IMG/VR virus record: IMGVR_UViG_2563366934_000004
Source of the DNA: a virus
Lineage: Duplodnaviria; Heunggongvirae; Uroviricota; Caudoviricetes
Strand: one strand, 5' to 3'
Length of the DNA: 49,224 nt
A program made the position numbers and the translations under genes. Below are positions 1 through 44,474 of this stretch, piece by piece. The notes under the pieces were generated by a model. The model saw only the letters and a list, made by a program, of their open reading frames with translations. It had not been told where the DNA came from and searched no databases. The stretch's first letter is position 1. Each line of letters begins with the position of its first letter.

Positions 1-1284
1 TTACAGACTTCTGGAAGGTTGCGCAGTTCTTACAACACGCGGTTGATCTTCCGCGGCGTCTTCCAGCGCACTTAAATCACGGTCTTTCACTTCTGGCATT
101 TTCAGCGCAGAGATTAAACCAATCACTGAATATGCCATGATCATAATGGCGATCGGATACCAGGATTCCGTCATGGTGCAGAAAATACCCGCCAGGATAG
201 GACCAAAACCGGAAGCGATAAGACCACCAATTTCTTTAGAAATAGCCATCCGGGTAAAGCGGTTTTTACAGCCGAACATTTCTGCCATGGTAATGTTTTC
301 CAGAGCAAATAATCCCAGCACCGCACAGTTATGAATCACAATCAGTGCAACCATAATGGTGCTCGGGGCATAGCTTTTATCTACAATGATAGAAAGCATT
401 GGCCATGCCAGCACAATCGCGGAGGTATTCATAATAATATACGGGATCCGGCGACCAATTTTATCGGATAACCAACCAAGGAACGGAATGGTCATAAAGC
501 CGAGAATCGAACTAATCATCAATGCATCTGTTGGAATTGCTTTGTTAAACAATAACGTCTGCACTAAATAGCCTGCAAGGAAAGTCTGAATTAACCCGGA
601 GTTACCCGCCTGACCAAAACGCAGCCCTGTTGCCAGCCAGAAGGATTTGCTCTGGAACATGCTACCAGCAGGTGCAGGTTTTGCTGTGGGTTGGTTGCTG
701 TCATTAACCTTCTCAAAGACCGGGCTTTCTTTCAGATTCATACGTAACCAGATAGCAAAGACCATCACGACAACGCTCGCCAGGAACGGTATACGCCATC
801 CCCACGCCAGCAGTTCCTCTTTACTGAGAATGAAGAACATAAAGGCCCAGATTGCCGTTGCGCTCAAGGTTCCGCAGTTAGTTCCCATAGCTACAAATGA
901 GGAGATAATTCCGCGCTTACCTTTTGGTGCATATTCCGCCAGCATCGTACCGGCACCGGAAATTTCCGCACCTGCACCCAACCCCTGAATAATACGCAGC
1001 GTCACCAGCAAGATGGGGGCAAAAACACCAATCTGTGCATAGGTCGGTAACACACCAATTAAGGTGGTACAGATCCCCATCATGGTGATGGTAATAAAGA
1101 GCACTTTTTTACGCCCTATTCTGTCGCCCATTTTGCCGAAAATAAATGCTCCGACAATACGCGCCACATAACCTGCACCGTAGGTTCCCATTGCCAAAAT
1201 TAACGCCATTGCCGTTGATGATTCAGGAAAAAATATTTCATGAAACACTAACGCTGCGCCGAGCGAATATAACTGGAAATCCAT
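1..1284 (-). CDS. ydfJ: MFS transporter (metabolite:H+ symporter type), host gene flanking the prophage
   Basis: 427-aa ORF, ATG start at 1282-1284, TAA stop at window edge; multiple hydrophobic segments and MFS-like GRxGRK motif. Gene symbol by synteny with Qin locus in E. coli K-12 (recalled). Confidence 0.75.
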   Translation of the reverse strand: MDFQLYSLGAALVFHEIFFPESSTAMALILAMGTYGAGYVARIVGAFIFGKMGDRIGRKKVLFITITMMGICTTLIGVLPTYAQIGVFAPILLVTLRIIQGLGAGAEISGAGTMLAEYAPKGKRGIISSFVAMGTNCGTLSATAIWAFMFFILSKEELLAWGWRIPFLASVVVMVFAIWLRMNLKESPVFEKVNDSNQPTAKPAPAGSMFQSKSFWLATGLRFGQAGNSGLIQTFLAGYLVQTLLFNKAIPTDALMISSILGFMTIPFLGWLSDKIGRRIPYIIMNTSAIVLAWPMLSIIVDKSYAPSTIMVALIVIHNCAVLGLFALENITMAEMFGCKNRFTRMAISKEIGGLIASGFGPILAGIFCTMTESWYPIAIMIMAYSVIGLISALKMPEVKDRDLSALEDAAEDQPRVVRTAQPSRSL

Positions 1285-2619: not shown

Positions 2620-3210
2620 ATGTCTCGAATTTTTGCTTACTGTCGGATATCAACGCTGGATCAGACCACCGAAAATCAACGCCGGGAAATCGAAAGTGCA
2701 GGTTTTAAAATCAAACCTCAGCAAATAATCGAAGAACACATTAGCGGCTCAGCAGCAACCAGTGAGCGTCCTGGTTTTAACCGGTTGCTTGCTCGCCTGA
2801 AATGTGGTGATCAATTGATTGTGACAAAACTGGATCGCCTTGGTTGTAATGCAATGGATATCAGGAAAACAGTGGAACAACTGACCGAAACAGGTATCAG
2901 AGTGCATTGCTTGGCATTGGGTGGCATTGACCTGACCAGTCCAACAGGAAAAATGATGATGCAAGTAATTTCAGCAGTCGCTGAATTTGAACGAGACCTT
3001 TTACTTGAACGCACTCATTCCGGGATAGTAAGAGCCCGCGGCGCAGGGAAACGTTTTGGTCGACCACCTGTGTTAAATGAAGAACAGAAACAGGTGGTAT
3101 TCGAACGAATTAAGTCAGGTGTAAGTATAAGTGCCATTGCCCGGGAATTCAAAACCTCGCGGCAAACCATTTTAAGAGCCAAAGCAAAACTTCAGACACC
3201 TGACATATAA
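2620..3210 (+). CDS. pin: Serine-recombinase DNA invertase (Pin/Gin/Hin family)
   Basis: 196 aa, ATG 2620; N-terminal catalytic region [15 protein letters not shown] with active-site Ser context, C-terminal HTH; classic invertase adjacent to tail-fibre genes. Confidence 0.9.
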
Positions 3211-3307
3211 AAAATAATCTCGGTGTGAGATGCTTTACGTGTTCCAAGCCCCCTTCCTTGCCGTAAATGGAAAGATACATCTAATTATAGAATTTATATG
3301 TTTTACC

Positions 3308-3883
3308 CTACGGCAGTGCTGGCCATTCAATATCCTGTGCAGTTGACGTATCAACACGGTTCAGCAATACCCGATACTTTTTCCATGCTTCCAGCAACGA
3401 GATTTCTTCCTCCGTTGCAATTTCCAGATCTGCAGCATCCTGAAGCGGCGCAATATGCTCACTGGCTACCTGCATCAGGTTGTTTTTTGTTTCTTCCGCC
3501 TCCCGGATCCGGAACAGTTTTTCTGCTTCCGTATCCTTCACCCAAGCTGTGCCGTTCCACTTCTGAAACTCCCCTTCCGGCGATAACCAGGTAACATTTT
3601 CCGGTAACGGACCGAGTTCAGAAATAAATAACGCGTCGCCGGAAGCCACGTCATAGACGGTTTTTCCCCGATGATCTTCAACGAGATGCCACGATGCCTC
3701 ATCACTGTTGAAAACAGCCACGAAGCCTGCCGGAATATCTGGCGGTGCAATATCGGTACTGTTTGCTGGCAGACCTGTATGAGGCGGAATATATGCGTCA
3801 CCTTCACCAATAAATTCATTAGTTCCGGCCAGCAGATTATAAATTTTTATGGTCCGTGCTTGTTCACTCATTCTGAATGCCAT
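3308..3883 (-). CDS. tfa: Tail fibre assembly protein (Tfa chaperone)
   Basis: 191 aa; ATG overlaps stf stop by 1 nt (TAATG); Tfa-like sequence immediately downstream of stf. Confidence 0.85.
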
Positions 3884-6846
3884 TATGCAAGCCTCACAAT
3901 ATAGTTAAATGCGATGTTTTTGACGGTGTTTTCCGCGTTACCAGCAGCGTTAACGGTGATGGTGTGTCCATGTGAACCAATCGCAACGGAGTGCGTATGA
4001 GCACCAATACTGACAGTATGTGCATGTGCGCCTGCGCTTGCAGCAGTGCCGGACAGCGAGTGGGTATGAGCACCATCTGATGATGTCTTCCCTGCATTAC
4101 GAGTCTGGCCACTACCGCTTGTTGTGCTCATAATCCCCGCGCTTAGATTTGAAATCGCGGTATAACCATTAGGGAAAATGCTCGTGTTCGTGCCACCAAA
4201 TGCACCGGAACTCTTGTGTTGGTGCGCACCGGCACTATTTGCAGTCCCGCTAATACTATGGGTATGCGCCCCGGTGTTATTCGTGGATTTGGTTCCGTAA
4301 TCAAACGACGATGTGTTTTTCGTCCCCAAATCCGTACTGGATGCGCTGGCGCTGTGGGTGTGCGATTTAATGCCGTCCTGTTCCTGAGACAATACGGCAC
4401 GACCACTGGCGGGTTTGCCCTTAATCGTCCAGCCACGCATATCAGGGATCACGCCTGACGGATAAGCGGCTGCAAGTTTCGGGTATGCAGATTTGTCAAA
4501 AGTCTGCCCCTGCATCAGGGCATAGCCAGACGGAACGGTATCTGATGGCCACGGGATTGGTGCGCCAGGCGGATAAAACTGCTCTGATGGCGTATAGAGT
4601 GAATAAACTGTACCGTCCGTTAACCCTTCCGGCTTATTAGCAGAATATGCTGGTGACGTATGAATCGTCACGCTGGCATTACTGGTATAATCCCATTGAA
4701 TATTTACACCAGTCGCATAATTTCCGATTGCAACGTAAATATCGTAAGTATCACCAGATGTATTGACCCAGGCAAAATTTGTAAACCCTGTCGATGTGCG
4801 CTGCCATAAAGCACCAGTAATCCCCTTCGGATTACCATTACCTGCACGCAAAACAAGTTCAGATATACCTGCCTGTTGAGGTGACCCCACGTTAAATCCC
4901 GCGCCACCAATCAACGTAATTGAAACAACAGAACTCGCCTGTGGCATGGTTACCGTTGCTAATTTGAACCAACCAGCACCACCGCTGAATGACATTGTTG
5001 TTGAGTTAAGCGTACCAATATCTTTCGGCGTCAGTGTTATATCAGCTGAAAGCGCCTTACCATTCACCTTACGGGCAGAAGGTACCCGACCATTCGCATT
5101 ATCATTAGCTGCTTTCACTGCTTTCGGTGTCGCGGCAAGCGTTTCAGATGCGCTGTTGGTTGCACTACTGAGCTGGACAATTCCTTTTTGTGTTGTCGTA
5201 GCGTCCTGAGCAGTATATTTCCCGTTAGCAAGGTCATAGGCTGCCTTTACCGACTTTGGCGTTGCCGCCAGCATTTCAGATGTGCTGTTGGTCGCGTTGC
5301 TAAGCTGAACTATCCCTTTCTGTGCTGTCGTTGCATCCTGTGCGGTGTATTTCCCGTTAGCCAGCTCATACGCGGCCTTAACGGCTTTTGGCGTTGCCGC
5401 CAGTGACTCGGAAGTGCTGTTAGTCGCACTGCTGAGCTGTACTATCCCCTTTTTCGTCGTGCTCGCATCCTCAAGCGCCACGGCGGATGCAATATCCTCT
5501 GCCCGTTTTGCCGCTGTCTCGGCGCGCGTTGCCGCGGATTCCGCCGTACTTTTGCTCTGAGCTGCCGCCGTCGCACTGCCAGCAGCCTCTGTCGCCTTCG
5601 TGGATGCCGTCGTGGCGCTGCCCCTCGCTGCTGACGCTTGTCTGGTCGCCTCATCTTTTGAAGCAGACGCAGATGATGCCGATGACGCCGCCGAACTGGC
5701 GGACGATGCGGCAGCCGTTTTTGAGGATTCTGCGCTGGTTTCCGACGCTTTCGCGTTCGTTTCGGATGTCTTCGCTGCGGAAGCAGACCTCGCTGCTGCG
5801 CTGGCCTGTTCAGTGGCTTCGCCAGCCTTCGTTGTGGCTGTTGAAGCGGATGATGCAGCACTTTCTGCCGATTTTCCGGCGGCGGAGGCACTGGCTGAGG
5901 CCTGCCCGGCACTTGTTGACGCGGCGCTGGCAGATGATGCAGCCGCTGTTTTTGAGTCTGCTGCTGCGGAGGCACTCTGTTCCGCTGCCGTTTCAGAAGA
6001 CTTAGCGTTCGTCTCGGACGTTTTTGCCGCTTTCGCGGAATTGCCTGCCGCCGTTGCCGAGGAAGCGGAACTACTGGCGCTCGAGGCTGCGCTCGTTTCT
6101 GATGATTTTGCCGCCTCTTTTGAAGCCGACGCATCCCTGGCTGAGGAGGCAGCTTCTGACGCTTTCGTGGTCGCGGTGGATGCAGAAGTGGCGGCTGATT
6201 GTTGTGACGCTGCCGCATTCGTTTCTGACGTTTTCGCCGCACCGGCACTGGTAGCCGCCGCGCTTTTTGAGGACTCTGCAGCGGCAGCACTTTTTGATGC
6301 TTCAGTGGCCTTTGTTGATGCCGTTCCTGCGCTGGAAGACGCTGACTGAGCCGACGACGCGGCCTGTCCGGCTGACGTGCTGGCTGCGCGTGCTGAGTCC
6401 GCAGCATCAGTCGCATGGGTTGCCGCCTCACGGGCTGATGTGCTGGCATCGCTGGCTGACTTCTTCGCGGCTGCCGTGTTCTGTGCCACCGCGGACGCGT
6501 TACGCGCCACCTCTTCCACCATCAGCTCAAAACGGCGCAGTGCCTCCGGACGGACATCATCCTCAGTCATGGCACCAAGAAAATCATTCAGCGTACCGGG
6601 TTGGGAATCTTCATACACGGTGATGGTCCCGGCATGTGACGGCGGGAATCCCTCCACCAACAGAATAACGCTGTACTGCCCGTACTCAACGTCCATGCTG
6701 TAACGCCCGGCTTCATCCGGATTTTCTGAGGCCAGCGTGTTCACCACCACCGTGGTGCTGTTACGTTTTGCTTTCAGCTGGATTGTGCAGTTCTGTACCG
6801 GTTTTCCTGTGCCGTCTTTCAGTACACCTGAAATCTTTACTGCCAT
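3883..6846 (-). CDS. stf: Side tail fibre protein (Stf)
   Basis: Start taken at [12 protein letters not shown] (ATG 6844-6846, GGGGTGA RBS). Conserved N-terminus, long Ala/Ser/Thr-rich central region, three tandem 44-aa repeats, His-rich HxH C-terminal receptor-binding region. Confidence 0.85.
5090..5490 (-). repeat. Three tandem ~132-bp (44-aa) coding repeats inside stf
   Basis: Near-identical 132-bp units (phase markers at 5143, 5275, 5407) encoding ...[44 protein letters not shown]... Confidence 0.8.
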
Positions 6847-6861
6847 ATTCACCCCACAAAA

Positions 6862-27545: not shown

Positions 27546-27816
27546 AATGTTACCGTAATATGTGAGTATCCATCGACTAGACACTAAGCAAAAAAGCTCC
27601 CGAAGGAGCCTTCATTTTCACTTTCTTAAATCTAACGACAGATGGCTAACATTTAAGTATTGTGAAATATTATCAAATGTAATCATCATTGATTTACAAA
27701 AGATACATTTTGCCCCGAAAGGATTTCTGTCAGAAACATCAAAAGATGATGTTCTATACTGAGAACCATGGCAACACGGGCATCTAAAGTGAATATGGTT
27801 TGTAATATTTTCTACC

Positions 27817-28029
27817 TCAAAGTGCCACTACATGAACAGCTGCAGGGCCTTTAGGTCCGTTCTCAATACCAAATTCGACTTCCTGATTCTCAGTTAACGT
27901 TTTGAAATCGTTGCTCTGAATAGCTGAGAAATGCACAAACACATCTTTGCTACCATCTTTCGGCGTGATGAAACCAAAACCTTTTTCAGGGTTAAACCAT
28001 TTCACTAAACCAGTCATTTTGTTAGACAT
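27817..28029 (-). CDS. cspI: Cold shock protein (CspA family)
   Basis: 70 aa; [21 protein letters not shown]... with RNP1/RNP2 motifs; long upstream leader typical of csp genes. Confidence 0.9.
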
Positions 28030-28392
28030 CATTATTACCTTTTGAAGAAGTTAGCCCTTGGGCAGAATGGTCCGAAAAAAAATATCAGAGAGAAAAACCA
28101 ACAAGGAAATCTCAAGAGGTACAAATAATAAAATTATAACAATGACTGCTTCAGATAATTTTGTAACAAACCAGAACACCATTAACGCATGATTAACCAA
28201 CCATAGCAAGGATTACTTTTGTAAAGAAAAACACACGAATGAAACAATAGCTTTATTTATTAATAAAACGTGTCATTCTGTCTAATGACCTTTTATCTTA
28301 CCCTTAAGATTTCAAGGATTTTGACTCATGGAAGAGTCCTTTTTATTTAAATTTCACATTCAGCGCTAAAAATAATCCGATTTAATATTAAT

Positions 28393-29732: not shown

Positions 29733-29948
29733 TTACTCTCCTCTCGCAGCCTTACGCCTGTCTTCTTTAATCTTGAAATAAAGATTTGTCAGGTACGTCA
29801 GCAGGCCAAATACCAGGCTACCCAGCACACCTATTGCTGCCCACTGTGAGGGCGTGACTTTATCGAGCAGCTGTAAAAACCAGTAGCCAGCACTGCCTGC
29901 GGAGGTGCCGTAGGCAATGCCTGTTGAAATTTTGTCCATGGATTTCAT
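29733..29948 (-). CDS. essQ: Pinholin S21-like (class II holin) with dual-start motif
   Basis: 71 aa from [26 protein letters not shown]... matches recalled phage 21 S; two TMs; MKSM dual start (antiholin/holin). Confidence 0.85.
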
Positions 29949-30199
29949 AGCCTCACCTCCGCACGGAACGGATGGCATAGTTATTATGTGTAGGCTTCCA
30001 GACACATCAATCAGAGCCTTAATTGATATATATGCTGGAGACGATGCAATATAAAAAGCTCGCCGTAGCGAGCTAATAAAATGTATTTCTCTGATATTAT
30101 GTTTATTTGTATTAGCTCAGACTTGACATCACAGGTTTCGTATATAGAACATCATCAAATCTGTCAGTTTGCTATGAATGAGATATAGTAATTGAAGAG

Positions 30200-31174: not shown

Positions 31175-32024
31175 TTTTCCTCACATATGTCATATAGTAA
31201 AGGATTATATATACCGTTGTTTTGGACGCTCAAACAGCGAATCAGATCAAATAAAACGCACATTTGTTAACATTTACACAAAGTCTGCGTGGGATATTCT
31301 GAAAGAATATCCATAATGTGGAGAGAATCTATTAAAGTGCATGGTGCCGGATGCCTCCCGGTGAATTCAGTACCAGCACCTGAATCCGCGATTATCCCAT
31401 ATACCTACTCGCTGATTGCCCCTCCGCACAGGGGGATTCACCATGCCAGTTTCTTTTAACAAACTCCCCGCAAACCAGAGAACAGTCAACCGCCTGAATT
31501 GTGAAGTATTTAAAAATTTCTCCCGCTAACTGATACCCGGCTAACAGTCTGGCGTTTTCTTTTTCAGCAACGGGAAAGCAACAACCACCACACCCGCCAC
31601 CAGCACACCGTCAGCCAGCACTGACATTATCCGGCTGCTGCAATGCCATTCACAAAAACAGTAAGCAATCACTTTTTACCGTAACAGGTGATAATCCAGA
31701 TATGTATCTACCCCAGATGAGTAATCCGAAGTTCATCCATACCACAGGTCCTGGCTATTCTGTTGTACTCCTGAACAAGAGCAAATAATTCTGAATTAGC
31801 AACCATGAACTCATCGCAAACCCTCTGTATAGCATCACTATTCAGAATAATAACGTCTCTTCCCGAAAGACGATCAGGAGCACAGAACAAAACTGTCAAA
31901 CGGCTGAAGGCCTTTGCTCGTGCTGCATTGACTATATCAATACGCTGCCTAAGGATGAATGATCTTACCCAGCAATAGTGGACACGCGGCTAAGTGAGTA
32001 AACTCTCAGTCAGAGGTGACTCAC

Positions 32025-32324
32025 ATGACAAAAACAGTATCAACCAGTAAAAAACCCCGTAAACAGCATTCGCCTGAATTTCGCAGTGAAGCCCTGAAGC
32101 TTGCTGAACGCATCGGTGTTACTGCCGCAGCCCGTGAACTCAGCCTGTATGAATCACAGCTCTACAACTGGCGCAGTAAACAGCAAAATCAGCAGACGTC
32201 TTCTGAACGTGAACTGGAGATGTCTACCGAGATTGCACGTCTCAAACGCCAGCTGGCAGAACGGGATGAAGAGCTGGCTATCCTCCAAAAGGCCGCGACA
32301 TACTTCGCGAAGCGCCTGAAATGA
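32025..32324 (+). CDS. insE: IS3 transposase OrfA (InsE)
   Basis: [32 protein letters not shown]... HTH + leucine zipper; matches recalled IS3 InsE. Confidence 0.9.
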
Positions 32325-33187
32325 AGTATGTCTTTATTGAAAAACATCAGGCTGAGTTCAGCATCAAAGCAATGTGCCGCGTGCTCCGGGTGGCCCGCAG
32401 CGGCTGGTATACGTGGTGTCAGCGGCGGACAAGGATAAGCACGCGTCAGCAGTTCCGCCAACACTGCGACAGCGTTGTCCTCGCGGCTTTTACCCGGTCA
32501 AAACAGCGTTACGGTGCCCCACGCCTGACGGATGAACTGCGTGCTCAGGGTTACCCCTTTAACGTAAAAACCGTGGCGGCAAGCCTGCGCCGTCAGGGAC
32601 TGAGGGCAAAGGCCTCCCGGAAGTTCAGCCCGGTCAGCTACCGCGCACACGGCCTGCCTGTGTCAGAAAATCTGTTGGAGCAGGATTTTTACGCCAGTGG
32701 CCCGAACCAGAAGTGGGCAGGAGACATCACGTACTTACGTACAGATGAAGGCTGGCTGTATCTGGCAGTGGTCATTGACCTGTGGTCACGTGCCGTTATT
32801 GGCTGGTCAATGTCGCCACGCATGACGGCGCAACTGGCCTGCGATGCCCTGCAGATGGCGCTGTGGCGGCGTAAGAGGCCCCGGAACGTTATCGTTCACA
32901 CGGACCGTGGAGGCCAGTACTGTTCAGCAGATTATCAGGCGCAACTGAAGCGGCATAATCTGCGTGGAAGTATGAGCGCAAAAGGTTGCTGCTACGATAA
33001 TGCCTGCGTGGAAAGCTTCTTTCATTCGCTGAAAGTGGAATGTATCCATGGAGAACACTTTATCAGCCGGGAAATAATGCGGGCAACGGTGTTTAATTAT
33101 ATCGAATGTGATTACAATCGGTGGCGGCGGCACAGTTGGTGTGGCGGCCTCAGTCCGGAACAATTTGAAAACAAGAACCTCGCTTAG
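32321..33187 (+). CDS. insF: IS3 transposase OrfB (InsF; DDE integrase-like, expressed as OrfAB by -1 frameshift)
   Basis: 288 aa overlapping the orfA stop; DDE-type catalytic region. Confidence 0.9.
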
Positions 33188-33432
33188 GCCTGTGTCCATA
33201 TTACGTGGGTAGGATCAGAAACACCCCGACGCCTCATCAATATTCACTCTACCCACACCATATGAATGATAAATATTTAATGCTGAAAAAACCATTAGAC
33301 CGTATAACAAACACTCAATCAATACTTAACAGAACTTTTATTTTTGACAAACATATTATGTTTTCAACAATATCCTGAGCCAGGTATATTCCAGTATAAG
33401 GCTCTGCCGGAAGGAATCTGGAAGAATGAATA

Positions 33433-33509
33433 TGGCGCGCTGTACTGGATTCGAACCAGTGACCGATTGCTTAGAAGGCAATTGCTCTGTCCGGCTGAGC
33501 TAACAACGC
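33433..33509 (-). tRNA. argO: tRNA-Arg (anticodon UCU)
   Basis: 77 nt; cloverleaf folded by hand: acceptor GCGTTGT/ACAGCGC, D-arm GCTC/GAGC, anticodon arm ATTGC-CTTCTAA-GCAAT, T-arm CACTG-GTTCGAATCC-AGTA; CCA encoded. Confidence 0.8.
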
Positions 33510-33609: not shown

Positions 33610-33685
33610 TGGTGGCCCTTGCTGGATTTGAACCAGCGACCTGGCGATTATGAGTCGCTCGCTCTCACCACTGAGCTAAAGGGCC
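33610..33685 (-). tRNA. ileZ: tRNA with CAU anticodon, tRNA-Ile2-like (ileZ-type; could also be read as Met)
   Basis: 76 nt; acceptor GGCCCTT/AAGGGCC, anticodon loop CTCATAA, T-loop GGTTCAAATCC, CCA encoded; body resembles recalled E. coli ileX. Confidence 0.75.
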
Positions 33686-33721
33686 GGGAGCAGAATAATA
33701 ACGGTCCGTAATTAATTCCGC

Positions 33722-33749
33722 AATAAAAAACCCGCTCGGCGGCGGGTTG
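33722..33749 (-). terminator. tR'-like rho-independent terminator downstream of PR'
   Basis: Minus strand CCCGC-CGCCGA-GCGGG followed by TTTTTTATT, about 60 nt downstream of the putative PR'. Confidence 0.6.
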
Positions 33750-33788: not shown

Positions 33789-33825
33789 TATGACGAATTT
33801 ACCACAGATTCCGGAAAAATCAACC
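33789..33825 (-). promoter_or_regulatory. Putative late promoter PR' (with qut region)
   Basis: Minus strand TTGATT (-35), 16-nt spacer, TAAATT (-10), directly after Q stop; resembles recalled lambda PR' (TTGACT ... TAAATT). Confidence 0.4.
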
Positions 33826-33828
33826 TTG

Positions 33829-34650
33829 TTACCTAGTTACCTTTTTTAACTGCCGCTCAGCCCATGCTTCTTCAATATCAAACCGGGTCACCAGCGCATC
33901 ATAGAATTTCTTAACTGTTTTTTCCCATGACGCGCGTGTTATCTGGTTTGTCACCTCGCATATAGCATTAAATGCCTCCGTTGATGGTAGTCTTTCATAG
34001 CCACGACCACCACAACGCTGGCAGTCTCTGATAACAGGCATACCACGTTTTACCGACTCTTCACGGTGAATGGCGACACCACGCCCACGGCAATCCTTAC
34101 AGGCGGTGGAAACCTCACCCTTTCCGCCACACTCCGGACAGGCAACTTTTACCACCTCCCTGACTTTTTTCCATTCTTCCCAGTAAGACGGATACACACC
34201 TTTCGTACACTTTGCCCATACCGGCGGCTTACCATCCGGATACTGGACCTTGTTTGTAAAAACTACGCTTTCAATAAATTTTTCCCCATAGCAACAAGGG
34301 CACTGCTTTTTACTCGCTGCGCTGCGGGCATAATCCTCAAAAGCGTACGAAGCCATAATGCGCATCACTACCGGTTTTATTTCTGCCGGAAGTTTTCTCA
34401 ACGCCGCCACACGATCGCACCGACTGAGTGCATAATCTGCCAGTAATTCTGTTGCCCGCGCCCTGTCATTCATACTGATGCCCATTTTCCCCAGGAACGC
34501 AGAAAACCCCATCTCAGCCCGATTCTGTGTCATGCCCTGCGCGGCCATCACATCAGTGATACTCAGCGCATCTTTTGACGTTGAAGCCGATGCATCGGTC
34601 AGGCAAGGGGATTTTGGGGAGTAGTATTTCGGTAAATCTTCCAGTTTCAT
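33829..34650 (-). CDS. quuQ: Late antiterminator Q (Zn-finger type)
   Basis: 273 aa, ATG 34648-34650; several CxxC pairs (CPCC, CPECGGKG, CKDCRGRG, CQRCGGRG); located directly upstream of PR'/tR' and lysis genes. Confidence 0.75.
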   Translation of the reverse strand: MKLEDLPKYYSPKSPCLTDASASTSKDALSITDVMAAQGMTQNRAEMGFSAFLGKMGISMNDRARATELLADYALSRCDRVAALRKLPAEIKPVVMRIMASYAFEDYARSAASKKQCPCCYGEKFIESVVFTNKVQYPDGKPPVWAKCTKGVYPSYWEEWKKVREVVKVACPECGGKGEVSTACKDCRGRGVAIHREESVKRGMPVIRDCQRCGGRGYERLPSTEAFNAICEVTNQITRASWEKTVKKFYDALVTRFDIEEAWAERQLKKVTR

Positions 34651-36897: not shown

Positions 36898-37053
36898 TTA
36901 CTCCTCAGGTTCGTAAGCTGTGAAGACAGCGACCTCCGTCTGGCCGGTTCGGATTCGTACCTCGCAGAGGTCTTTCCTCGTTACCAGTGCCGTCACTATG
37001 ACGGTTAAACAGATGACGATCAGGGCGATTAACATCGCCTTTTGCTGCTTCAT
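36898..37053 (-). CDS. hokD: Hok-family type I toxin (HokD/Gef-like)
   Basis: 51 aa MKQQKAMLIALIVICLTVIVTALVTRKDLCEVRIRTGQTEVAVFTAYEPEE; in-frame upstream extension corresponds to the mok-type overlapping frame. Confidence 0.85.
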   Translation of the reverse strand: MKQQKAMLIALIVICLTVIVTALVTRKDLCEVRIRTGQTEVAVFTAYEPEE

Positions 37054-37795
37054 AGCCTGCTTCTCCTTGCCTTTCGGCACGTAAGAGGCTAACCTACATG
37101 TGTCTAGCATAGATATGGCCTCAGATTAATGTTAAGCGTCTTGCCGGACGCGTAATGTTAACTGGGGCTTTTCTCTATCTGCCTTTGGTGTTGATGCCCG
37201 AGGCAGATAGCCTCAAGCACCCGCAGCAATTCTACTTAACTACCGTTACCTCGCCAATATGAAATCAATCAGAAAGGTGATCCATAAGAACAACAGCAAG
37301 ACAATAAATTGCCATTACAGCAGCAATAGCCAGCGCACATTTGAGAACCAGCACCACAACCTCCTGTATTGGACGTACACCAGTCCTGATAAATATGAGG
37401 CTGTCTCGTCAGTGATTCAATACAACTACTGGGTATAGTTTCTATGATTTTGTTCTGTGGAAATGGAAAACAGCAACCAGTCACGACCAGCACTTCTTTA
37501 AACATGCCAAGTCACACGCAAGCCAACATTATAGTTCCCTTTGAGCGAGCAGATGAAGCTAGCAAAAATATTGATCACTTAGGATGCATTACTAACGTTG
37601 CTATGTGTTAACGAACAGGGAGTGGGTCATCAGCATAAATATTTATGCAGTAGGTTTCTTTTAGGACTAGATTAATCAAAAACATTTAGATAAAATTATA
37701 AAATCAAGAAATTGGTGGCAATTAATCTTTAATTGTGCCAGCTGAATTTCGTTATTATAGAAGATTAGCTTTTTTTTGAATATTTGGAGAGTAAA

Positions 37796-38491
37796 ATGTT
37801 AGAACCACCAAAGAGTTATAATGAAATGTTGCCTATGCTCCATAAGGCGACTTTTATTACTACATTTATATTTTACCTATCATTAGTCATTTATGGCTAC
37901 ATGCCATTGGTTGGCATTAATGCCAAGTATATCCCCCCCGTTAAAGACTACGAGGAATTTATTAAATGGATATTAACCTTTGGCATATTACCAATTGCAT
38001 CTTCAGTTTTTTGGTCAGTAATTAGTGGAGCTTTAGATCTACATAATAATGTAGCAAAAATTATTGGAATAAGGAAGATGTGGGATAGTCATTTAATTAT
38101 TAAACCATTAGCAAAAATTGCAGGCGTTACGAGAAAATTAACTACTGATGAATCTCACAAGGTAATGAGTAAACTGTATTACCCAGAAGTTAAAGAGTTA
38201 AAAGACAAACATTACGTTGAACTTTTCTGGAACAAAGTTTATTACTTTTGGGTTTTCTTTGAACATACAGTAATCGCATTTGTTACTATTTTAATAATAA
38301 GTATCGCCAAATTAACAAATATATTCTCTGTTACTGGCTCTTTAATTAATCTTTGGTTGTGGATTATTTCTCTTGTCGCATTTGACTTCCTTATTTTCAT
38401 AGCATCAGTTAAACCAAGAACAGAAAGCCAAGTAAGACAAATACCTGATAGCAAAATAAAAGAATTCTTTAACAATAACAATATTTTTTAA
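37796..38491 (+). CDS. Integral membrane protein (about 4 TM), unknown function; AT-rich cargo
   Basis: 231 aa from ATG 37796 (GGAG RBS 6 nt upstream); four strongly hydrophobic segments; AT-rich codon usage. Confidence 0.6.
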   Translation: MLEPPKSYNEMLPMLHKATFITTFIFYLSLVIYGYMPLVGINAKYIPPVKDYEEFIKWILTFGILPIASSVFWSVISGALDLHNNVAKIIGIRKMWDSHLIIKPLAKIAGVTRKLTTDESHKVMSKLYYPEVKELKDKHYVELFWNKVYYFWVFFEHTVIAFVTILIISIAKLTNIFSVTGSLINLWLWIISLVAFDFLIFIASVKPRTESQVRQIPDSKIKEFFNNNNIF

Positions 38492-38497
38492 ACGAGG

Positions 38498-39157
38498 TTG
38501 ATTTTGAATTATAAAATAAATGGAATAAACATACGTTCAGAAAATGCAGCGAAACCGCACACTATGCCATCTAACTATCTCTGTAAACAGATTGAAAGCA
38601 CTAATAAAAATGGCAATGCCCTTGATTTTGGATGTGGAAAACTTAGATATTCAGAACAATTAGTAAATAAATTTGAAACTGTGACATTTTTAGATTCCAG
38701 AAGACAACTAGAAAGAGTGCAAATTATCAGAGGTGTACAAACCACGATTCCAGATTACGTGATAAATAACTATAAGAATGCTAATATTGTTTCTTATGAA
38801 AATATAGATAAAATAACAAATCATTATGATTTCATACTTTGCGCAAACGTGCTTTCCGCAATTCCATGTGAATCCACAATTCACAAAGTCCTCAGTGCGA
38901 TTAGAGAATTATTAAAGAGTGATGGTGAAGCACTGATTGTCAATCAATACAAAAGTTCTTATTTCAAGAGGTACGAGAGCGGTATTAAACATTTGCATGG
39001 GTATATATACCAAAACTCTCGTAATGCTTTCTACTATGGTTTATTAGATGTGGATACTGTAAGTAAAATATGCTCAGATAATAATTTAGAAATAATAAAA
39101 TCATGGAGCAAAGCAGGTAGTTCATATGTGGTTGTTGGTAAACATATACATATTTAG
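38498..39157 (+). CDS. Class I SAM-dependent methyltransferase (small, Rossmann-type)
   Basis: Motif I LDFGCGKL and downstream FILCANVL motif; starts 7 nt after the membrane-protein stop (exact start uncertain: TTG 38498/38504 or ATG 38564). Confidence 0.6.
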   Translation: MILNYKINGINIRSENAAKPHTMPSNYLCKQIESTNKNGNALDFGCGKLRYSEQLVNKFETVTFLDSRRQLERVQIIRGVQTTIPDYVINNYKNANIVSYENIDKITNHYDFILCANVLSAIPCESTIHKVLSAIRELLKSDGEALIVNQYKSSYFKRYESGIKHLHGYIYQNSRNAFYYGLLDVDTVSKICSDNNLEIIKSWSKAGSSYVVVGKHIHI

Positions 39158-39471
39158 TTTATTTCAACAAATTATTAGAAAGAGTGATTTGCTTGTTAAT
39201 CATTAGCTCGGCAGTGCCGGATCAACATGACCCTGCCACTTAGGCCATTGCCGGTTTACCTACTTTTGTAAGGTTCAGCATGAAGTTTTTATATACTCTT
39301 CCTAATATCAATAGTGATGCTCGCTTATGTTAGCTGCTTCTTGTACATAGTAGCCTTCTCCGACAGTACTGCAATGAGCGGAGAGTAAAAGTCGATAAAC
39401 AATAAGGAGGTTCACAATAAATATTTCTCGGTGAAACTTTCAAAGCATTCTCTGTTTTGCTAAATCGACAA

Positions 39472-40371
39472 TTATAAATCAACAACATTTAGTGTTATAT
39501 CAATATTATTTAGCCTTGCAATCTCTGATGAATCACTTGCTATTTTAGCTTTTAATTTATCAATATTAATCATATCTTCATGGCTTATATAAACCATATC
39601 ACCTTGGTTAACTTTAGATTTGTTCACTATGGCTTGAATAACAGACAAATCATCCATTACACCTCTCATAAATTTCACCATGCTTTGATCTTTGAAGTCA
39701 GATATCGATTTTGAACGTTGCTTACGTTGAATTGTTCCTTTTGTAATTACTTCATTAATTTCTTTTAAACCAGTGAGCATATCAGACAGACTGCCTTCGC
39801 AACTCATCCGATGTTTTATTGCATTGCGATTAATAATATTGAGTATAATTTCGAGTGAATCTTTATCACTCCATGGATGTAATGATGTATAATCATGATG
39901 GCGTCGAATGGCGTCAATCATATCCTGGACCATATCTTCATCTGCTTTATCGCAAAGTTCATTCACGAAATAGCTGGGGTCGATTATTTTACAATAACTT
40001 GGAGTTAGGTATCTTGAGGCTTTACAAAAACCAAAAATATATAAAGTAGAGTATTTATCTTTCAGACTCTCTCCTATTTCATTTGTTTCCTCAAAAGATT
40101 CGATAGTTTTTTTAATTTTTGCTGGACTTGCATTCGTAGTAACTTGAACTGCTATCATGTTTTTATTATCAGCTAAATCAATGGCGGGAAAATTAACTTT
40201 AATCTGATTCATGTTTACCAGTTCACCCATTTTCAGCGCGCGAAACATAAAGATGGTCAATGACTCAATTATTCTTTCCATGTCATGAAAGCCTGCCTGT
40301 TTGCGTTGCGCGATATAAAGCTGGAGTAGTGCAATATCACTCTGTAAGTTTCTAATAAGTGGATCAATCAT
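39472..40371 (-). CDS. Hypothetical 299-aa protein, N-terminal region possibly SMEK-like
   Basis: ATG 40369-40371; AT-rich; N-terminal motif NFPAIDLADNKNMIAVQVTTN recalled (unverified) as characteristic of SMEK-type N-terminal domains; convergent with the membrane/MTase pair. Confidence 0.55.
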   Translation of the reverse strand: MIDPLIRNLQSDIALLQLYIAQRKQAGFHDMERIIESLTIFMFRALKMGELVNMNQIKVNFPAIDLADNKNMIAVQVTTNASPAKIKKTIESFEETNEIGESLKDKYSTLYIFGFCKASRYLTPSYCKIIDPSYFVNELCDKADEDMVQDMIDAIRRHHDYTSLHPWSDKDSLEIILNIINRNAIKHRMSCEGSLSDMLTGLKEINEVITKGTIQRKQRSKSISDFKDQSMVKFMRGVMDDLSVIQAIVNKSKVNQGDMVYISHEDMINIDKLKAKIASDSSEIARLNNIDITLNVVDL

Positions 40372-40623
40372 AGCTAATAATCCTTTTCAATGAAGCTGGA
40401 GGTGTGTTTAACTATTAGTTAAATTTCTATTTTTATAGAAACAAGCTTTACAACTTCATCAAAGTTTCTCAAATCCTAATCCACTTTGCAAATCCACTAA
40501 CCATGCTGAATGCTTTCTGTTGTTAAACATATCCGCTGCTGGCACCAAGCAGACAAACACACTAACTCTACCCTACTCCACAAAAGAGCCAATCAATATC
40601 TGAACTAATAAACTTTAATCTCA

Positions 40624-44416: not shown

Positions 44417-44474
44417 TTTCTGGTGACGTTTGGCGGTATCAGTTTTACTCCGTGACTGCTCTGCCGCCGTTTTT
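44417..44474 (+). ncRNA. dicF: DicF small RNA (ftsZ-targeting) with intrinsic terminator
   Basis: TTTCTGGTGACGTTTGGCGGTATCAGTTTTACTCCGTGACTGCTCTGCCGCC + TTTTT matches recalled DicF; GGCGG...CCGCC terminator stem. Confidence 0.8.

Follow-up and report, generated by a model that had tools for sequence, protein, structure and literature searches.

IS3 insertion in a conserved accessory gene of the late region of an mEp460/Qin-type lambdoid prophage

The late region of an mEp460/Qin-type prophage of Escherichia coli carries one complete copy of IS3, bounded by a perfect 3-bp repeat (GAA), within a conserved gene of 92 codons that begins with GTG. One intact element transposed once, into codon 10 of this accessory gene, with duplication of GAA. 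We consider it probable that the locus as a whole represents a simple IS3 insertion that inactivates an accessory gene, is read through on induction and leaves the prophage viable. Insertions of this kind are routine in E. coli prophages, and the finding matters little on its own; its mild novelty lies in the gene that IS3 marks, which is conserved, selected and largely unannotated.

The window, i.e., the whole stretch of DNA analyzed (49,224 nucleotides; IMG/VR record IMGVR_UViG_2563366934_000004), consists of a single lambdoid prophage. Its left flank (positions 1..1284) is ydfJ, the gene in which the cryptic prophage Qin of K-12 is integrated. The window is collinear with the 45.9-kb genome of mEp460_ev081 (LR597641.1), with 96 to 100% identity over ~43 kb, and mEp460_ev081 has been described as a functional temperate phage related to Qin (PMC10448788; PMC6969025). 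The annotated mEp460_ev081 proteins all have full-length counterparts in the window, with three exceptions: the side tail fibre, whose middle is mosaic but whose 989-aa ORF remains open; a hypothetical gene, which has been swapped for a different cargo block of 3.1 kb (37466-40600); and the integrase, which is cut by the window end. Apart from IS3, this gene-by-gene comparison revealed no visible lesion. Judged by gene content and collinearity, the prophage that hosts IS3, a lambdoid element of the mEp460/Qin type located in E. coli ydfJ, is otherwise intact. IS3 and the larger cargo block make it ~2.1 kb (~4.6%) longer than mEp460_ev081, and the extra length could be of consequence if the capsid has little packaging room to spare.

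The IS3 element and its target site

The element occupies positions 31960..33217 (1258 bp) on the plus strand, with TGATCTTACC as its first letters and GGTAGGATCA as its last; in longer form, the 5' end reads TGATCTTACCCAGC and the 3' end GGGTAGGATCA. Its tips are TGATC...GATCA, i.e., 5'-TG...CA-3', and form the outer ends of imperfect terminal inverted repeats of ~39 bp, IRL (31960..31998, plus strand) and IRR (33179..33217, plus strand), which are complementary at 28 of 39 positions when compared end to end. The upstream gene, orfA (32022..32324, plus strand), encodes an InsE-like HTH protein of ~100 aa that is matched by Pfam HTH_Tnp_1 (E = 5e-10) and also by the N-terminal part of NCBIfam transpos_IS3. 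The downstream gene, orfB (32321..33187, plus strand), encodes 288 aa with a DDE/rve catalytic domain (Pfam rve, E = 5e-28, and rve_2, E = 5e-22; NCBIfam NF033516, E = 3e-101). A -1 shift at the A-AAA-G slippery site (32287..32291, plus strand) joins orfA and orfB in an unbroken fusion of ~387 aa, the reading expected of an OrfAB transposase made by programmed frameshifting. The element is 99.84% identical to the IS3 copy of strain K99B, from which it differs at 2 of 1258 positions and which PGAP labels [quoted passage not shown]; copies at least 99% identical occur in 4144 E. coli records. At the sequence level, the element has all of the defining features of IS3, namely, its length and near-identity to other copies, TG...CA inverted repeats, a 3-bp duplication, and overlapping orfA and orfB with the A-AAA-G motif.

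The two copies of GAA lie at 31957..31959 and 33218..33220, at positions where the empty site has a single GAA. A 3-bp match arises by chance alone in 1 of 64 cases, and the predicted empty site was therefore tested, by means of a 1000-bp construct made of the 500 bp of left flank ending in GAA and the 500 bp after the right GAA. This construct was identical over 1000 of 1000 positions, without gaps, in each of the best 30 E. coli chromosomes listed, and at least 80% of it was covered in 1183 E. coli genomes. Phage mEp460_ev081 matches it at 100%. Since the empty site is base-for-base identical in IS-free genomes, the event was a simple transposition that duplicated 3 bp and has stayed unrearranged, and the preliminary description, which had proposed exactly this for a complete 1258-bp IS3 with a perfect GAA repeat, is confirmed on this point.

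The occupied site has so far been seen in this prophage alone among the sequences searched. A megablast search found no covering match in any of 5426 complete E. coli genomes, exact scans of GTDB species genomes, IMG/VR and JGI metagenomes with a 40-nt probe for the left junction gave no hit, and a look-up of the ORF that spans the junction returned no match. One draft contig matching the 3' fragment of the gene was considered as a second occupied site and rejected: it stops 61 bp short of the junction and differs at 6 of 3191 bases, and for these reasons it is regarded as separate from the event in the window. The restriction of the junction to the window, together with the multi-copy nature of IS3 in E. 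coli, is what might be seen if a misassembled repeat had been placed at this site artificially. We regard such an artefact as scarcely credible, as misassembly would not yield flanks that agree with the empty site base for base and, in addition, a perfect duplication of 3 bp. Absence of the junction from every other sequence searched and the pristine state of the duplication point instead to a real insertion that looks recent and strain-private.

A hot spot for IS elements was also considered and rejected. The K99B copy of IS3 lies near tRNA-Arg, flanked by a CAT duplication at an unrelated site, and strain 154 carries a different element at a different site, an IS2-like element whose 5-bp ATAAA duplication overlaps the stop codon of the homologue and leaves the gene intact. 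Furthermore, of the 1314 complete E. coli genomes with the 92-codon gene, 1311 have it as one contiguous copy (a single place covering at least 80%).

The disrupted gene

When IS3 and one GAA are removed, the minus-strand frame is open across the insertion point for 117 codons from a TTG, 108 from an ATG and 92 from a conserved GTG. The protein read from this frame aligns with phrog_2873 from end to end, at profile positions 1-108 of 108 (E = 2e-69). Three diverged loci in other E. coli prophages (L004, L005 and L006, with L005 grouped with L006), at 67 to 72% nucleotide identity and 59 to 62% protein identity, keep an identical frame of 92 codons with a GTG start (M/V-N-I-D) and the same stop. 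Because this GTG-to-stop frame is the part conserved in diverged homologues, the gene proper is taken to have 92 codons; the preliminary description was correct that the frame is open, and its estimate of about 100 codons gives way to this figure. Comparison with IS-free relatives, which had been put forward as the way to identify the disrupted gene, thus leads to a 92-codon phrog_2873 gene with its frame kept in diverged homologues.

The substitution pattern agrees with a protein-coding role. Pairwise dN/dS in the 92-codon frame is 0.26 to 0.28, compared with ~0.9 to 1.7 in four of five control frames. The fifth control frame, the antisense frame, also has a low dN/dS because its wobble positions are shared with the gene frame. 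An ORF on that antisense frame was rejected as the true gene, as it is open for 95 aa only in L004, for 67 aa in the reconstructed window and for <40 aa in L005 and L006. In addition, an exhaustive profile search recovered further full-length remote homologues of 91 to 106 aa. By these measures, the disrupted ORF is a genuine gene under purifying selection, and the earlier claim that a gene open across the insertion point had been disrupted is upheld by the full-length phrog_2873 match, the conserved frame and a dN/dS of ~0.27. The gene has largely escaped automatic annotation: PGAP has no annotation at its site in any of the IS-free genomes inspected, and RAST made no call for it in the mEp460_ev081 phage record.

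IS3 entered at codon 10, a Phe codon (TTC, the complement of GAA). The 5' fragment (33218..33247, minus strand), read directly, consists of the GTG start, which is conserved in homologues, and codons 1 to 10. The 3' fragment (31708..31959, minus strand), read in the reconstructed frame, comprises the duplicated Phe codon, codons 11 to 92 and the stop. A ribosome starting at the GTG would now add only 10 residues before it meets a TGA that the end of the IS creates, and the 82-codon remainder is without a start. The insertion would therefore act as a null mutation of an accessory gene, which we presume to be dispensable. Located in the variable accessory region that separates Q from the lysis genes, it is found in only 1 of 50,697 sequenced phage records (E ≤ 0.001) and is therefore not a core lytic function.

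A cut at codon 10 is as clean a null as might be expected if inactivation had been favored, i.e., if the 92-aa gene, alone or together with its downstream neighbor, were costly or toxic to the host and the insertion were adaptive rather than neutral. The neighbor is a DUF3927/TciB-like gene of 43 aa (31541..31672, minus strand; Pfam PF13064, E = 2e-27; phrog_1470), which starts 36 bp past the stop of the disrupted gene and whose phrog_1470 label, “inhibition of cell division or resistance to colicin,” would suit such a cost. The distribution of the gene runs against selection for its loss. It is present in 1314 complete E. coli genomes (~24%), is at least 99% identical in 1130 of them and is contiguous in all but three; this contiguity and the purifying selection on its sequence imply that loss is rare and not generally favored. 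Moreover, a single private event cannot demonstrate selection, and an adaptive knock-out is accordingly given little credence relative to a neutral insertion in a dispensable gene.

The 92-aa protein belongs to no named family in Pfam, PADLOC or protein searches, and the PADLOC anti-phage defence models gave no family at E ≤ 0.01. Its AlphaFold model is a confident two-helix hairpin (pLDDT 85), and an attempt to derive function from structure was abandoned, as BFVD and PDB searches returned generic helical hairpins only (best E, 0.05 to 0.12). The protein carries an invariant loop motif, FSxLTV..PDR.SG. In another prophage, a remote homologue (P0030) is followed by a gene with weak similarity to TerB, then by a DUF3927 gene and a different lysis cassette, and the gene is thus found just upstream of a DUF3927/TciB-like gene and lysis cassette in two separate prophage lineages. 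The P0030 locus hints at a recurrent association of the disrupted gene with DUF3927; the L004, L005 and L006 loci are without a DUF3927 neighbor. It is conceivable, if rather doubtful, that the 92-aa gene belongs to an uncharacterized pre-lysis module, acting for example on lysis timing, exclusion or the host envelope, of which this strain would carry a natural null allele. The gene may contribute to lysis timing or burst size.

Late operon layout and the question of polarity

The transposase genes lie on the plus strand, and Q, both tRNAs and the lysis genes lie on the minus strand; IS3 is consequently antisense to late transcription. Gene strands and coordinates agree with its earlier placement between the tRNAs and the lysis genes, and the “tRNA cluster” then named upstream of it is present as two tRNAs only. 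On the minus strand, the region begins with the late antiterminator gene Q (33829..34650; Pfam PF03589, E = 6e-55; phrog_127), the product of which is 98.9% identical to Q of mEp460_ev081. It is followed by a putative late promoter, pR' (33796..33823), with TTGATT, a 16-nt spacer and TGgTAAATT, which was recognized by eye and scores below the threshold of a consensus scanner. A tR'-like intrinsic terminator (33720..33748; a T run after a 7-bp stem that includes 5 GC pairs) occupies the interval between Q and the tRNAs. The first tRNA has anticodon CAT (33610..33685) and is called Met by ARAGORN and Ile by PGAP in an identical gene; the second is tRNA-Arg (TCT) (33433..33509). Next come the IS3-split gene, the DUF3927 gene, the sRNA STnc100 (31285..31475), two genes for lipoproteins with a TolA-C domain, a second terminator-like site (30057..30074) and the holin gene (29736..29948), which is the first gene of the lysis cassette, is 100% identical to that of mEp460_ev081 and is named essD by PGAP in L001. 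The genes for DUF1327, lysozyme, Rz and the head and tail proteins follow. Holin, lysozyme, Rz, terminase and tail genes are all on the minus strand and collinear with mEp460_ev081. The order of Q, putative promoter, terminator, and then lysis and morphogenesis genes on one strand is that of a lambdoid Q-dependent late operon. Past the putative pR', the tR'-like terminator and the two tRNAs, the disrupted gene is the first in this operon to encode a protein. IS3 itself lies ~580 bp downstream of the putative promoter and past the tR'-like terminator.

The preliminary description suggested that such an insertion may be polar on the lysis and morphogenesis genes. In its strongest form, the antisense element would stop or attenuate late transcription, by way of Rho acting along an untranslated RNA of 1.26 kb or by collision with transcription of the IS, and the prophage would be effectively defective or heading to domestication. 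The position of IS3 between the putative pR' and all late protein-coding genes is compatible with this possibility. So is the composition of the antisense transcript, the first ~500 nt of which are biased toward C over G (GC skew of the plus strand, +0.1 to +0.19 at 32700-33200); an untranslated RNA rich in C relative to G could load Rho, and Q does not protect completely. The example of Qin, which occupies this site in K-12, shows in addition that decay is possible in this type of prophage (PMC10448788).

Several features nevertheless make polarity on the late genes unlikely. The putative pR', the tR'-like terminator and the tRNAs all precede IS3 on the late strand, and on induction the element would therefore be met by Q-modified polymerase. 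In PMC12360218, which cites Forbes and Herskowitz 1982, Q is described as a proven polarity suppressor that makes RNA polymerase processive, resistant to pausing and termination, and likely Rho resistant. The late transcript of IS-free relatives already passes the tR'-like terminator, two tRNAs, STnc100, a terminator-like site and long noncoding stretches before it reaches the holin gene, and a search of the minus strand of IS3 (31960-33217) revealed no terminator-like site. There is also no visible secondary decay; the other genes are full length, in keeping with an insertion that looks recent, and the sequence gives no sign that the IS is polar on the lysis or morphogenesis genes or has left the prophage defective or domesticated. 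No direct experiment on an IS within a Q-dependent operon was found in the literature for this prophage type.

A simple insertion with read-through would have different consequences in the two states of the prophage. In the lysogen, where no Q is made, IS3 may lower expression of DUF3927 if that gene is cotranscribed with the disrupted gene, and DUF3927 is the gene most exposed to polarity under these circumstances. On induction, Q-modified RNA polymerase most likely crosses the 1.26-kb antisense IS, such that expression of the lysis and morphogenesis genes would persist and the prophage would probably still be viable. The locus offers a clean natural test of the ability of Q antitermination to take late transcription through an antisense IS.

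Comparison with known elements and prophages

The element shares with IS3 of E. coli (IS3 family, IS3 group) its length, ends, 3-bp duplication, orfA/orfB frameshift and DDE (rve) domain. Two bases aside, nothing separates it from the K99B copy, and its novelty is confined to the insertion site. In the case of the disrupted gene, all 108 positions of the phrog_2873 profile are covered by the reconstructed protein, and the conserved core of that profile corresponds to the C-terminal 92 residues from the GTG, whereas the 16 N-terminal profile residues are not conserved in diverged homologues. The prophage shares with mEp460_ev081 and Qin its gene order, dicB/DicF, rem, hok/sok, Q, tRNA, DUF3927, TolA-like and lysis genes; it differs from mEp460_ev081 in the presence of IS3 in the 92-aa gene, the 3.1-kb cargo block and the mosaic center of the side tail fibre. 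The strain is a natural knock-out for the 92-codon gene, and the prophage in question, a relative of cryptic Qin, is otherwise intact.

Insertion sequences are familiar in lambdoid prophages. IS5 interrupts nmpC between Q and the lysis genes of the K-12 prophage DLP12, IS629/IS1203v occurs in Stx phages, and DLP12, Stx and similar IS-carrying prophages usually bear several other lesions. An IS has been reported in the nu1 gene of Sakai Sp4 (PMC2669165), as have transposases close to stx accessory genes in Stx phages (PMC8136144). The insertion described here is a new site of a well-known IS in a well-known type of prophage, and it is an ordinary, strain-specific event of an already known kind. 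As in other lambdoid prophages with IS insertions, a common host IS has split a gene; unlike in those prophages, IS3 is the sole visible lesion.

Distribution and annotation of the 92-codon gene

The 92-codon gene of phrog_2873 lies on the minus strand and is split by IS3, its two parts occupying 33218-33247 and 31708-31959. Its sequence is carried by 1,314 of 5,426 complete E. coli genomes. No PGAP feature was found under the match in the rows for highly similar copies, and the sole annotated version is the diverged homologue in E. coli prophage locus L004, which is listed as hypothetical protein WP_001017777.1.

Contig end and IS insertion at related loci

An IS2-like element of the IS3 family is inserted at 2811-4160 of prophage locus L005 (E. 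coli O22:H8 strain 154), where it is flanked by a 5-bp ATAAA duplication. The position of the element is such that this duplication overlaps the homologue's stop codon (the homologue of the 92-amino-acid gene remains intact), and near-identical locus L006 lacks the element. In addition, a close relative of the window's prophage is represented by a draft-assembly contig (L007; GCA_053120595.1, contig ACBBRF010000043.1) that ends within the gene at the equivalent of window position 31898, 61 bp from the IS3 junction of the window. The strain in question may carry a further repeat or IS at this point, or the break may simply be a gap in the assembly.

The STnc100 sRNA is encoded on the minus strand at 31285-31475 (Rfam, 109 bits versus a threshold of 47), immediately 3' of DUF3927. 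Four to five more matches to this element of ~180 bp, with 70 to 84% identity, are located 3' of the gene homologue in L005 and L006.

Accessory regions and comparison with related prophages

The 3.1-kb cargo block at 37466-40600, which lies between hok/sok and the replication genes, is absent from the functional temperate phage mEp460_ev081. It contains three ORFs, encoding a membrane protein of 235 amino acids (37784-38491, plus strand), a SAM-methyltransferase-like protein (38498-39157, plus strand), and a SMEK_N-domain protein (39472-40371, minus strand; PADLOC model Aga_REase-PNTD1-PNTD2, E value of 1e-20). The block is possibly an anti-phage defence island.

The serine recombinase gene (2620-3207, plus strand) is 100% identical to the mEp460_ev081 copy and adjoins the tail-fibre-assembly (tfa) and side-tail-fibre genes (3308-6852, minus strand), with an Rfam “IS009” RNA (3342-3540) within tfa. 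The tail-fibre centre is mosaic relative to mEp460_ev081, and the recombinase and tail-fibre region together may constitute an invertible host-range segment.

Further Rfam matches are the sok antisense RNA (37048-37222, minus strand), accompanied by hok/mok (36901-37053), DicF (44418-44469, plus strand), and a cspA-type 5' untranslated region thermoregulator (27771-28187, minus strand). The same accessory RNA set (sok, DicF, and the thermoregulator) is found in Qin, the cryptic prophage of K-12.
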